Shown here: positions 289 to 4,593 of the stretch, piece after piece
Layout: each line of letters opens with the position of its first letter
Position numbering within the stretch: the first letter of the stretch is position 1
From: Elusimicrobiota bacterium
GTDB lineage: Bacteria > Elusimicrobiota > Elusimicrobia > UBA1565
DNA length: 64,000 nucleotides
Assembly (NCBI GenBank): GCA_041661185.1
Contig: JBAZUV010000004.1
Location: forward strand, 85,002-149,001
Reading direction: 5' to 3'
Program-made: the position numbers and the translations under genes
Notes under the pieces: model-generated
Seen by the model: only the letters and a program-made list of their open reading frames with translations
What the model was told of the DNA's origin: nothing
Databases searched by the model: none

Positions 289-1836
289 ATGCTCTCTAAA
301 GTCTGGTCCGCGGGGATCCGAGGAATCGACGGGTTCATGGTGCGGGTGGAACTCGATCTGGTCAATGGTCTGCCTACTTTCACCACCGTAGGACTGCCGG
401 ACAGCTCCGTCCGGGAGGCACGCGAACGCGTGGTTTCGGCCGTGCGCAACTCTGGATTCGAGTTCCCCGGCCGCCGAATCACGGTCAACCTCGCTCCGGC
501 CGAACTGCGCAAAGGCGGAACGCAATTCGATCTTCCGATAGGACTCGGCGCGCTCATGGCTTCCGAGCAAATTCCTATGCAGAGCAGATCATCTGTCTTG
601 TGTTTCGTGGGAGAACTGGCTCTCGACGGCTCGGTTCGTCCGGTATCCGGCGTACTCCCCATGACGACATCCGCCAAAAACCACGGCATGCAAGGGATCG
701 TGGTTCCTCGTGAGAATCTTCGGGAAGCCAGAGCCGTTCCCGGAATCGAGTCCTATGGCGTCTCTTCATTGCGGGAGGCGTCGGAACTATTGAGAGGGTG
801 TGCTCCGCAGGAGAACCTGGAGAGCGAAGAAGCCGCAAACAGCGGTGCAACAAAAGAGGATGAAATCCAGGACATGAACGAAGTTCGAGGACAAGCTCTG
901 GCCCGTCGCGCTTTGGAGATCGCCGCGGCCGGCGGGCACAACCTGCTCATGATGGGAACGCCGGGCACGGGGAAGTCCATGCTGGCTCGCCGGTTGACGG
1001 GAATTTTGCCTCCGCTGACGTCCGACGAATCGTTGGAAGTGATGAGGATTTATTCCGTCTGCGGCTTGCTCGGCCCTGGAGTCGGCATCATGAGAAATAG
1101 ACCGTTTAGAGCGCCTCACCATACCACGACGCCTACCGCGCTCATCGGAGGCAGCGCGCGCTGCAAGCCTGGAGAAGTCACCTTGGCGCATTGCGGAGTG
1201 CTTTTCATGGACGAGTGGCCCGAATTCGGCCGGGACTCGTTGGAAACGCTTCGCCAGCCGTTGGAGGATCGCTGCGTCACGATTTCGCGGTTACGGGAAT
1301 CCGTGACCTATCCCTCCGACTTCACCCTCGTTGCCGCGATGAACTTGTGTCCCTGCGGAAAACTGGGGACGCTCCCGAGCCGGTGTCGTTGTTCCGAGCC
1401 GGCAATAAGGCGTTATCGATCCCAGATTTCCGGACCTTTACTGGATCGCATGGATTTGAGAGTGGAACTGAGCCCTCTTCCTTTTTCCGAATGGATGACT
1501 CATCCCGGTCCTTCACCGGAATCATCGGCCGTGGTGCGGGAGCGGGTACTGAAAGCCCGCGCCGAAGCTTTGGCCCGTTACGACGAGACCGGAGAAACGC
1601 TGAATGCGCGTCTTGGATACGCGGCAGTGCGTAAATTCTGCATGCCGAACTCCAGCGGTTTGGCGTTGGTGGAAACAGCTGCACAAAAGAACCGTCTCTC
1701 CGCGCGCGGGCTGGACCGTCTCCTTCGGGTCGCTCGAACGATCGCAGACATGGAAAATTCCAAGCAGGTGGATCGCCGGCATGTCGCGGAGGCTTTGCAG
1801 TACCGCTCCTTGGATTTGGAGGGACGAGAATTTTAG
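289..1836 (+). CDS. comM: Mg-chelatase-like AAA+ ATPase ComM/YifB, intact, 515 aa
   Basis: Full-length ORF with N-terminal ComM domain (GIDGFMVRVELD...TTVGLPD), Walker A GTPGTGKS and Walker B LFMDEWPEF; typical family length. Confidence 0.9.
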   Translation: MLSKVWSAGIRGIDGFMVRVELDLVNGLPTFTTVGLPDSSVREARERVVSAVRNSGFEFPGRRITVNLAPAELRKGGTQFDLPIGLGALMASEQIPMQSRSSVLCFVGELALDGSVRPVSGVLPMTTSAKNHGMQGIVVPRENLREARAVPGIESYGVSSLREASELLRGCAPQENLESEEAANSGATKEDEIQDMNEVRGQALARRALEIAAAGGHNLLMMGTPGTGKSMLARRLTGILPPLTSDESLEVMRIYSVCGLLGPGVGIMRNRPFRAPHHTTTPTALIGGSARCKPGEVTLAHCGVLFMDEWPEFGRDSLETLRQPLEDRCVTISRLRESVTYPSDFTLVAAMNLCPCGKLGTLPSRCRCSEPAIRRYRSQISGPLLDRMDLRVELSPLPFSEWMTHPGPSPESSAVVRERVLKARAEALARYDETGETLNARLGYAAVRKFCMPNSSGLALVETAAQKNRLSARGLDRLLRVARTIADMENSKQVDRRHVAEALQYRSLDLEGREF

Positions 1837-1894
1837 CGAAGCCGAAGGAGTGCAACCCGGCTAGACACAGCGCTGATGCACCGGACCGTCAAAT

Positions 1895-1934
1895 ATATAG
1901 CCACGGTTATATATTTTATAGCCATGGTCATATT
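1895..1934. repeat. Two AT-rich direct repeats (atatagccacggttatat / ttatagccatggtcatat) between convergent comM and the AlbA_2 gene
   Basis: 17-18 nt units, about 15/17 identical, separated by 4 nt, in a locally AT-rich stretch at both 3' ends; contains a near-palindromic CCATGG core. Confidence 0.4.
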
Positions 1935-3628
1935 TATGACCGAAGTTCATACCACGCCCCTTTTCTCGTGCCATGCAGCTTGATCTTTTCTGCTTTGACA
2001 AGCTTGGCCAGCAGATGTCCTGCCTGACGTACCCCGAGCTTGCAGAGGTCGGCGGCTTCTGCGCGGGTGATGCGGCCATGTTTCTCAATAAACTGAACAA
2101 TCATCTGCTCTTGCTGAAGCGGTTCGAAACCGCGTTGCCGCACATAAGCGGCCTTCTCGCCCAAGCGCCGGTAGGTCGCAGCTGAAAGGTGGTATAAACG
2201 CCCTTTCTTCTCCCCACGCGACTCGACCAGCCCGGCCTCCACAAGCCTCTGGAGCGTCGAGCGCGCCTCTCCTTCCGTTTTCTGGATGAGCACAGCAACC
2301 GTGGCCGCGTCTATTTGCCGGTCGATCCATATCCGGTTGAGGACAAGCAAATCATCGAGTCGCAGCGGCCGATCTGCGCGGCTTTCCTCCGTCACAAGCC
2401 GGGCGAAATCCAAGTTGGCTTTCCCGCCAGGAATAACAAGCATCACGTCGGTATCGGTAGTGCGGTCATACGACGGAACGGGCCGTCCGTTCCTCAACTG
2501 CTCGTAGAAGATCGTGTCTATTCCACGGGCTGTCCGCTCGACGATTCCGGCACGTTTGAAGGCGTCCGCAAGAAGAGGGTTGCGGGGACGAGGCGCCGTA
2601 ACCAGCAAGTTGTCCAGCCTGACCCCTTCGGGAAAGCCTCCGGGATTGGAGATGTCAATGCGGTCGGCATGCCATTGGATGTGGACGGCTCCGAGCCGGG
2701 TATAATCGCGGTGGATGAAGGCGTTCGCCACGGCTTCCCGGACGGCCCGCTCAGGATAGTCAGGTACGCCGACGCGCAGCATGCCGACCATCAATTCGGC
2801 CTCCTGGCTCCGTGCGCGGAAACGCGCTTCAATTTCATCCATGAGACGGATCAAAGGCCAGCGAAAAAAGTCGTTCACCTTCACATCCATGCCTTGAAGC
2901 GCCTGGAACGCGGCTTCGTGGGTAGGAAGATGGCGGTGCAGCGCCTCTTCCCGACCGAACAGCAAGAGCCCCATGACTCGGATAACCCTCACAGCGCCGT
3001 TGGCTTCGACCGCGCCCAACGCCTTCGCCAGTTCAATGTCGGGCAAATCCTGCAAGGCGGCGTCACCGCGTCCCTGACTTTCCCGAATGCGTCGACGGAA
3101 CCGCTCGAACTCCAATGGGTCAAGGTCCTGCCATGTCGCCTCGGACGCACCGGCAGCCGTATAATCCAGAACACCGCGGCTGGATTGGAGCGACTGCATT
3201 TCGTGGAAATGGAACGGAAGACATGCAGGCTTTCCGTCACCGCCCAACGCGCGACGCAGATACTTGCCGTCCGTAGTTCCTACCGGGAGCCGGAGCGGAG
3301 GGATCCGAATGACGAGGACGGGTTTCCCGTCGATTTCGTGAAGCGATACCTGGACGCTTACGGAAGGTCGAGTGCGGCCTGAAATCAAGGCCTGGACACG
3401 CGATGGATCGGTATTGCCCTCCCCATGGCGCGGGCGTGCGCCCGTGATGCGTCCGTCATCTTCCACTCCGAGAAAAACATAACCGGGCCGGTCGCCGGAA
3501 CGATTGGCGAGGCAAACGACCGCGTCAATCAGGTCGCCGTCGCTCAGAGGCCGCCGTTCCTCTCCCTTAAACTCGACATCGAGAGATTCCCCGCCGGAAA
3601 TGAGCGCTCGAATTTCAATTTCGGTCAT
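1934..3628 (-). CDS. AlbA_2/Schlafen-like N-terminal domain plus HATPase_c_4 (RecG-C-terminal-like) ATP-binding protein, putative regulator, about 564 aa
   Basis: Internal start [21 protein letters not shown] (AlbA_2 motif); C-terminal [15 protein letters not shown]...ISNPGG matches the 'divergent AAA/ATP-dependent DNA helicase RecG-related' regulator family. Upstream ORF extension is Arg/Pro junk. Confidence 0.75.
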
Positions 3629-3911
3629 GCTTATTTCCCTCCGGGAATTTGGCCGCGATGGGCAGGTCGAAGTGCGTGCCGGCCTTGCGCATCTGCGCCG
3701 GCGCGAGATTGACCGTGATGCGGCGTCCCGGGAACTCATAGGAGGAGTTGCGGATCGCGGAGACCACGCGCTCGCGCGCCTCGCGCACGGAGCAGTCGGG
3801 CAGCCCCACGGTGGTGAAGGTGGGCAGACCGTTGGCAAGGTCGAGTTCCACCCTCACGACGCGGCCGTCGATTCCCTGCACCGCCGCTGAAAAAAGACGC
3901 GCAAGCATGCC
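3615..3911 (-). pseudogene. Truncated, diverged second copy of the comM 5' end (about aa 1-97), inverted relative to intact comM
   Basis: Translation [73 protein letters not shown] is about 85% identical to ComM aa 10-88; nucleotide identity is lower and mostly synonymous. Its stop overlaps the start of the AlbA_2 gene. Confidence 0.7.
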
Positions 3912-4008
3912 CATGATTACGAATCCGACGCGAAAAAGTTCCATCCCGACCGCCGGGAACTCCCGCGCGCGGAGGGATATGATAAACTCACGGCCAGCCT
4001 GGAAAGCC

Positions 4009-4593
4009 ATGGAGATCATCGCCCATCGGATCAATACGCTGGACGCGCTCAGCCGGCTTGCGCCGGAGCTGGGCGCGGAGATCGACATCCGTTCCCGCGG
4101 CGGACGCCTGATCCTCCACCATGAACCCCATGCCGAGGGCCCCTTGTTCTCGGACTTCGCGGCCCTCTACGCGCGCACCCGGCGCGAGCGCCTGCTCATC
4201 CTCAACACGAAAGAAGACGGACTCGACAAAGAGATCCTCGCCATCCTCGCGCAGAACGGCCTGAAACGCTTCTTCTTCCTCGACCTGAGCCTGCCCTCCG
4301 CGGTGCGATTGGCCCTCCGGCAGAATGAGGGCCGCTTGGCCTTGCGCGTCTCGGAATACGAGCCGGCCGAATCCCTCGGGCCGTTTAAAGGCCGCGCCCA
4401 ATGGGCATGGCTGGACTGCTTCGAGGGCCGTCCGCCTTCCGCGAAGACCGCGCGGGAACTGCGCAAGGACTTCAAGGTCTGCCTGGTCTCCCCGGAACTC
4501 GAAGGTTATCCGAAGGAAAGCATCGCGCTCTTCAAACCCCTGGCCGCTCATGCGGACGCGGTCTGCACCAAGCACCCTGAACTGTGGCGATAA
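4009..4593 (+). CDS. Small glycerophosphodiester-phosphodiesterase-like (GDPD/PI-PLC-X-like) protein, about 194 aa
   Basis: [11 protein letters not shown]...GAEIDIR...LILHHEP resembles the GDPD HR, E-x-D and HD motifs. Start chosen at internal Met; the upstream part of the ORF is junk and overlaps the comM fragment. Confidence 0.5.

Follow-up and report, generated by a model that had tools for sequence, protein, structure and literature searches.

Interior of a native comM probably replaced by a Wadjet-bearing block that carries a second, inverted comM in an Elusimicrobiota bacterium

How does a bacterial chromosome come to hold an intact comM and, inverted beside it, the 5′ end of another? 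The question is raised by a 64,000-nt stretch of an Elusimicrobiota bacterium (GCA_041661185.1, contig JBAZUV010000004.1, positions 85,002 to 149,001; the window hereafter), in which a comM fragment directly precedes, on the same strand, a gene with AlbA_2 (Schlafen-like) and HATPase_c_4 domains. An earlier reading made from the letters of the window (the sequence-only reading) had taken the intact comM as resident and the fragment as foreign, left by an element that once captured or targeted comM, or by an old inversion and duplication. Its suspicion that comM was struck by incoming DNA, with the AlbA_2 gene as cargo, holds; its assignment of the two copies is reversed by the analysis described here. 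In the account that we consider probable, the interior of the native comM gave way to a 10.2-kb block with a lower GC content at third codon positions (GC3), which carries the AlbA_2/HATPase_c_4 gene, a foreign comM in inverted orientation and the four genes jetABCD, and which entered independently of homology. The main cargo, jetABCD, and the native 3′ fragment of comM lie outside the window and were thus invisible from the window alone.

An exact-match look-up of the AlbA_2 protein returned the same DNA from three independent assemblies (ENA ERZ27249449, Logan SRR6484324 and Logan SRR18595301), all 100% identical to the window wherever they overlap it. The window maps onto the locus L001 (13628..1) at 100% identity; it starts 107 nt inside jetA, and most of the island lies to the left of window position 1. 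In L001, two collinear, same-strand ends of one comM bracket 10.2 kb that contain another, complete and inverted, comM. Along the old gene the order is comM 5′ end (85 codons), AlbA_2/HATPase_c_4 gene, complete inverted comM, jetABCD and comM 3′ end (~45 codons), and the native gene has lost ~1.16 kb (codons ~86-472), in place of which stands the block of lower GC3. The 3′ stump forms the last ~45 residues of a 53-codon open reading frame (ORF; stump at L001 ~20200..20339), matches positions 63-94 of the Mg_chelatase_C profile (E = 1e-5) and contains the motif ...HLAEALQYRGLD. An extension of this stump into the end of jetD (FGYVRQVC versus LGYAAVRKFC) was rejected, as the JetD C-terminus is conserved among JetD homologues.

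The intact gene belongs to the ComM/YifB family by its three domains (Pfam ChlI, PF13541, 6e-45; Mg_chelatase, PF01078, 7e-87; Mg_chelatase_C, PF13335, 2.5e-28), by the retention of both Walker A (GTPGTGKS) and Walker B (VLFMDEWPE), and by a TIGR00368 score of 554.8 bits against a family cut-off of 362.4. The 5′ fragment lacks this three-domain architecture; its frame leaves comM past codon 85, the homology ending after FDLPIA; its match to Pfam ChlI (E = 9.6e-27, profile positions 1-67 of 121) nevertheless establishes homology far beyond chance, and it is a gene remnant. Gene calls and Pfam confirm the arrangement that had been read from the sequence, an inverted, diverged comM 5′ fragment directly upstream of the AlbA_2 gene and beside the intact comM. 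The span of the fragment had been read as 3615..3911. Its stop (TGA, 3617-3615) stands, and does overlap the AlbA_2 start as proposed, by 14 nt; the ORF as called begins at 3914 (MGMLARLF), and the Met homologous to the comM start is at 3908.

Which of the two copies is native is best judged from their surroundings. In the closest available Elusimicrobiota genomes (L077-L080), comM is embedded in the block T2SSE-g412-DnaA-like-(GAF kinase)-g148-g382-GNA1162-CsgG-(variable)-comM-LysM-TPR-HTH-DprA-TopA-XerC-g321-PurA, with which a short contig (L088) agrees for comM-LysM-TPR. The sequence-only reading had asked whether related genomes lack the AlbA_2 gene and the fragment at this site, and they do: in L077-L080 and L088 alike, a lone intact comM precedes LysM, and there is no island. 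In the window, the upstream genes g412, DnaA-like, g148, g382, GNA1162 and CsgG lead into the fragment and not into the intact comM. Beyond the 3′ stump (examined in L089), TPR, DprA, TopA, Xer, g318 and PurA follow on the same strand, with 46-73% identity to the L079 proteins, and a ~3-kb insert (PepM28 plus His_Phos_1) stands where relatives have LysM and HTH. The intact comM has no native neighbours. Composition gives the same partition: GC3 is 0.75-0.89 in the native genes on both sides, 0.86 in the comM 5′ fragment and 0.75 in the 3′ fragment, versus 0.655 in the AlbA_2 gene, 0.649 in the intact comM and 0.62-0.73 in jetA-D. Across the shared 85 codons the fragment has a GC3 of 0.859 and the intact copy 0.682, so that the higher value first noticed in the fragment is real and is host-like. 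Finally, the fragment is preceded by 37 nt with homology to the sequence ahead of comM in L079 and L080, while the homology of the intact comM to relatives ends at its ATG and its stop codon. Gene order, GC3 and the homologous upstream flank together identify the fragments, on sequence grounds, as the resident comM still in place and the intact comM as an import that came with the island. A hybrid native/foreign origin of the intact gene was considered and rejected, GC3 being uniform along it (0.55-0.72 per 300 nt).

The two comM sequences also differ too much, and in the wrong way, for one to be a local duplicate of the other. Protein identity between fragment and intact copy is 78.6% (66/84), the ~85% first estimated applying across the last 68 residues only; in-frame DNA identity is 74.1%, or 77% in the best 233 nt. 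Over the 85 codons, the Nei-Gojobori method (our own script) gives dS 1.19, dN 0.148 and dN/dS 0.125, which bears out the synonymous divergence noticed from the sequence and indicates that the two sequences acquired most of their differences as functional genes of separate lineages. The DNA of the fragment is closer to comM of L078 (78.0%) and L077 (75.3%) than to the intact copy, and the first 85 residues of the intact comM are 86-89% identical to relatives versus 78.6% to the fragment. The fragment is thus not most similar to the comM beside it, which had been named as the mark of a simple local duplication, and the old inversion or duplication of a resident gene offered by the sequence-only reading is not upheld; by these comparisons the two sequences are of different lineages. 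The nearest proteins to the intact comM are Elusimicrobiota comMs, all at most 70% identical and each in a native comM-LysM context. As the best matches are all of this phylum, the donor would be another Elusimicrobiota lineage, of lower GC. The 85-aa fragment as a query matched short proteins only, the nearest full-length relative being beyond its reach. Further truncated comM 5′ ORFs in public data (long contigs P0033, P0117 and P0008; the 8-kb contig of P0003) were tried as extra insertions and rejected, since they are frameshifted, otherwise complete comM genes and probably assembly errors.

Features of the comM locus. Window coordinates refer to the 64,000-nt stretch; L001 coordinates are given in the orientation of the comM fragment.
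Feature	Position	Strand	Remarks
jetA (DUF3375), first ~36 codons	window 1..107	-	remainder of type I Wadjet operon off window
Divergent control region, jetA / imported comM	window 108..288		holds the promoter motif at 201..225 (+)
ECF-sigma-like promoter motif GGAACTTTT-N11-TCGTA	window 201..225	+	before imported comM
Intact comM/yifB	window 289..1836	+	515 aa; read as imported from a foreign lineage; Pfam and TIGR00368 matches
Conserved 3′ tail of AlbA_2 unit	window 1896..1933		two palindrome-like repeat copies, ATGACCATGGCTAT / ATAACCGTGGCTAT
AlbA_2 (Schlafen-like)/HATPase_c_4 gene	window 1934..3628	-	564 aa; convergent with intact comM; left edge of island; cargo
Native comM 5′ remnant ORF	window 3615..3914	-	codons 1-85 of comM (3654..3908), then 13 non-comM codons
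Candidate left terminal inverted repeat	window 3644..3654	-	GGCCAAATTCC; partner GGATTTTGGCC at L001 20189..20199, right edge
Native comM promoter-like motif GGAACTTTT-N11-TCGTA	window 3918..3942	-	now faces comM′(1-85), then AlbA_2
comM 5′ fragment	L001 9721-9975	+	
AlbA_2	L001 10001-11695	+	
Complete comM	L001 11793-13340	-	
jetA-B-C-D	L001 13522-20137	+	
53-codon ORF with comM 3′ remnant	L001 20178-20339	+	

The jet operon is that of a type I Wadjet system. jetA (DUF3375), jetB (DUF4194/MksE), jetC (SMC-like ATPase) and jetD (DUF3322 plus JetD_C/Toprim) overlap or abut on one strand in canonical order, and PADLOC recognizes JetA1 (1.5e-182), JetB1 (1e-67), JetC1 (E = 0) and JetD1 (5e-131). 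Compared with other type I systems (JetABCD/MksBEFG/EptABCD), the operon itself is ordinary; only its location, inside one comM and divergent from another, is unusual. None of the closest Wadjet operons (66-81% protein identity across JetA-D) adjoins a comM. The closest relative in the metagenome scan (L085, 10045-12928) is followed by three adjacent tyrosine-recombinase genes (recombinase-in-trio), which suggests that this copy rides on a mobile element.

The AlbA_2 gene (PF04326, 6e-14; PF13749, 9e-17) has weak partial matches only in PADLOC (pAgo-associated models, 5e-11; candidate PDC-S50, 9e-6) and no NCBIfam match, and the closest solved structure to its protein, 3LMM, is uncharacterised. 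None of its homologues of 50-89% identity, found at 73 loci in many phyla, lies within 10 kb of a comM or Wadjet gene. In the closest copy (L004, Elusimicrobiaceae; 89% identical, 85% in DNA), homology is confined to the stretch between 14 nt ahead of the ATG (-14) and 38 nt past the stop (+38). A conserved AlbA_2-comM or Wadjet-comM module was rejected, neither the 73 AlbA_2 loci nor the closest Wadjet loci having a comM, and by its parts the island is a mosaic. Another copy, 86% identical, lies directly behind an excisionase-like HTH gene (L059, 9580-9831) in JACRDO01, an Elusimicrobia metagenome-assembled genome (MAG) whose comM is intact at the native site (L077); there the AlbA_2 gene is on another contig, which fits carriage by a mobile element. 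Nearly every AlbA_2/HATPase_c_4 gene (L004-L076, many phyla) has a 14-18-bp palindrome right behind it, in 2-3 tandem copies; the first of these often overlaps the stop codon, and the sequence varies by locus while the layout is conserved. At least two perfect 6+6 palindromes are present in 20/53 downstream regions versus 1/53 upstream regions and 0/54 ORF interiors. These palindromes might serve as operators bound by the DNA-binding end of the protein itself, or as sites at which a single-gene mobile unit recombines. No relatives of the island were found in viral_contigs. comM was found on 53 of 72,556 plasmid records, mostly megaplasmids or mislabelled chromosomes, and on 30 of 50,697 phage records, a rarity that makes a comM inside an island unusual.

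Both copies of comM are preceded by a promoter-like sequence of the extracytoplasmic function (ECF) sigma type, GGAACTTTT-N11-TCGTA, which occurs twice in the window, once ahead of each comM (expected 0.02). The same motif lies ahead of comM in the relatives L077 (9968-9992) and L088 (5005-5029), in the form GGAACYTTT-N11-TCGTA. In native genes it ends 3-11 nt before the start codon, and this spacing suggests leaderless or near-leaderless native comM transcripts; the imported copy has ~55 nt extra before its ATG. Scans of 1..4300 for sigma-70 promoters and terminators gave nothing over background. The motif retained ahead of the native stump now bears on the AlbA_2 gene, whose ATG (3628-3626) is 26 nt from the junction and has a ribosome-binding site (GGAGG, 3638-3642) 8-9 nt ahead of it. 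Given this spacing, the ribosome-binding site, the stop/start overlap and the retained motif, AlbA_2 probably owes its expression to the captured native comM promoter, with its translation coupled to that of the stump ORF.

The orientation of the imported comM constrains how the block arrived. Because it is inverted, entry by pairing with the resident comM is excluded, a homology-anchored event being one that would leave the copies collinear, and two non-homologous junctions are needed. By the evidence above, the genome once had a single comM, in the cluster ...GNA1162-CsgG...comM-LysM-TPR-HTH-DprA-TopA-XerC-x-PurA. The block now in place of its interior brought a promoterless AlbA_2 gene, a type I Wadjet operon and, under a promoter of its own, an inverted comM. 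It would have entered by homology-independent insertion, possibly by transposition of a non-autonomous unit with 11-bp inverted-repeat ends, after which a deletion from one end of the element would have removed the comM interior. The Wadjet system would then restrict incoming circular plasmid DNA; type I Wadjet complexes are reported to cleave such DNA (10.1101/2022.10.04.510915, PMC10889018). With its Walker motifs retained and a promoter-like motif of its own, the imported comM most likely replaces the lost ComM branch-migration helicase function (for the role of this helicase, see PMC6158740).

The candidate terminal repeat is a 10/11 inverted match between the terminal bases at either end of the insert; its motif is unique in the window (expected 0.11) and, across 90 loci, is found at these two edges only, plus one unrelated match. 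With position ignored, however, its score of 17 lies under the 95th percentile of shuffled controls (19); the repeat could be a chance match and is a lead only. This score weighs against insertion of a single block, as do several further observations. None of the six island genes (AlbA_2, comM, JetA-D) is an integrase, transposase or excisionase. At the island ends we found no long terminal repeats or direct repeats beyond the comM homology, and no target-site duplication, the target having instead its ~1.16-kb deletion. The arrangement is present in one lineage only; no empty-site or intermediate genome was found, so that single and several events are not distinguishable; and the second low-GC3 insert (PepM28, His_Phos_1) just past the 3′ stump implies that the locus was struck more than once.

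Such observations give some room to a history of several independent insertions into a hotspot, which we judge unlikely but worth keeping in mind. A second comM, with or without Wadjet, would have been gained first, after which the redundant native copy would have been struck separately by the single-gene AlbA_2 unit (codon 85) and by other DNA (near codon 472), an internal deletion following. The AlbA_2 unit is indeed sharply bounded (-14 to +38) and moves by itself at 73 further loci, the closest Wadjet relatives are without comM, another small low-GC3 insert lies next door, and the genes upstream of comM differ among relatives, suggesting a variable spot. This history requires at least three strikes within one 1.5-kb gene, however, and sits poorly with the near-equal GC3 of the three island modules (0.62-0.73) and with 11-bp inverted repeats that lie at the outermost edges of the block, not around sub-modules. 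More ambitious than the probable reading, and in our view doubtful, is the proposal that the block is a comM-targeting mobile defence element with terminal inverted repeats, moved by machinery encoded elsewhere. Its functional comM would keep the host transformable (a "self-complementing" insertion, opposite to the AbaR strategy discussed below) and, being inverted, could not recombine with the stumps and delete the element; AlbA_2 would be wired to the target promoter, and the shared divergent Wadjet/comM control region would couple plasmid restriction to competence.

Three other explanations have very little probability. If the resident comM 5′ end had undergone local inverted duplication, or an old inversion had left the fragment as a decayed copy, the 233-nt inverted repeat that the two sequences form 3.1 kb apart would be accounted for, yet the results refute this idea: the substitution pattern reports purifying selection in separate functional genes, GC3 differs (0.86 versus 0.68), the fragment DNA is closer to comM of other species than to the intact copy, and a matching 3′ fragment with conserved gene order on both sides marks the fragments as the original gene. 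Those same inverted 5′ ends might serve as arms of a programmed invertible switch, recombination between them flipping AlbA_2 and the comM body and swapping promoters; although the inversion would geometrically restore a complete hybrid comM downstream of the native promoter, the arms are 77% identical only, no invertase gene is present, and all three assemblies have one orientation at 100% identity, so that we accord this idea equally slight credence. Least credible of all is a chimera of two strains or species joined at comM by assembly. The abrupt change of GC3 at the junctions is what a chimera would give, but native gene order resumes on both sides, NCBI and JGI each have a copy of the 245-247-kb contig of the MAG, and the same sequence spans the junctions in one MEGAHIT-type ENA assembly and two Logan assemblies of different runs. 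An identical arrangement in three independently assembled samples shows that it is not an assembly artefact.

Other parts of the neighbourhood vary as well. Between the comM stump and CsgG (window 4009-11140) lie genes of native-like GC3: orf194, a HAD hydrolase, a class II aldolase, an NTP_transferase, a PRK-domain membrane protein and a GT2 glycosyltransferase. The counterpart in relatives is a GDSL lipase or other variable genes, and the comM upstream region varies among Elusimicrobiota. The insert just past the 3′ stump (L089, 7926-10726) is on the opposite strand and low in GC3, with an M28 peptidase (GC3 0.63) and a 547-aa His_Phos_1 protein (GC3 0.70). It replaces the LysM and HTH_31 genes and parts TPR-DprA-TopA from the comM promoter; the best named matches of the peptidase, up to 56% identity, are outside Elusimicrobiota, and an unnamed match reaches 62%. 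Farther away, window 37502-42035 holds two large ORFs with a GC content of 0.58 and 0.56 versus the window average of 0.63, one with CarboxypepD_reg and Lamin-tail domains and the other with no Pfam match; the pair possibly marks a further acquired segment.

Insertion into comM has precedents. AbaR/Tn6022-type islands interrupt comM in Acinetobacter, and targeting of comM has arisen convergently among mobile elements (PMC9881144, PMC11441513). The likeness to AbaR consists in a multi-gene accessory island within comM, whose helicase product serves natural transformation. As Tn7-like elements, AbaR islands possess tni genes and long, structured ends, generate a 5-bp duplication and leave both comM halves complete. 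The present island, in contrast, has no transposition genes, has deleted ~1.16 kb of its target and carries defence cargo instead of resistance genes: no Tn7-like genes (tnsA/tnsB/tnsC, tniA/tniB, tniQ/tnsD) were found among the six island ORFs, and its edges lack structured Tn7-like ends (repeated TnsB sites TGT...ACA, 5-bp duplication), the 11-bp edge repeat not starting with TGT. In cyanobacteria, comM is targeted by Type I-B1 CRISPR-associated transposons and by tyrosine-recombinase elements (PMC9881144), which are independent cases of programmed insertion into this gene. These elements have their own targeting and recombination machinery and carry no comM, whereas the island described here is without such machinery. 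There is no recombinase between the comM stumps and no direct att repeat at the junctions, and the conserved XerC-like gene, at the same cluster position in relatives, is the nearest gene of the Phage_integrase type.

Some integrative elements restore the gene that they enter, for example prophages with a replacement icd or tRNA end. The present island resembles them in that the inserted DNA offsets its damage to the target gene. Target-restoring elements supply the displaced gene end only, in direct orientation and joined at an att site; the island has a whole comM with its own promoter, inverted and unjoined to the stumps.

Islands that disrupt comM are thus well known, one with an intact replacement comM is unusual, and the case is a single one in one lineage; there is no sign of a new kind of system. 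AbaR islands have been argued to profit from comM inactivation, as crippled transformation prevents the host from deleting the element (PMC11441513). The intact comM of the present island would cancel that benefit, and an island in comM with a working comM would be a counter-example to this view, its host remaining transformable while gaining an anti-plasmid system. If the reading of the AlbA_2 gene is true, cargo can be expressed by capture of the target gene's native promoter. As a single case from an uncultured Elusimicrobiota bacterium, the locus is mainly a well-resolved example of a defence island remodelling a competence locus; if the pattern recurs, it would point to a second means by which islands and natural transformation can coexist.

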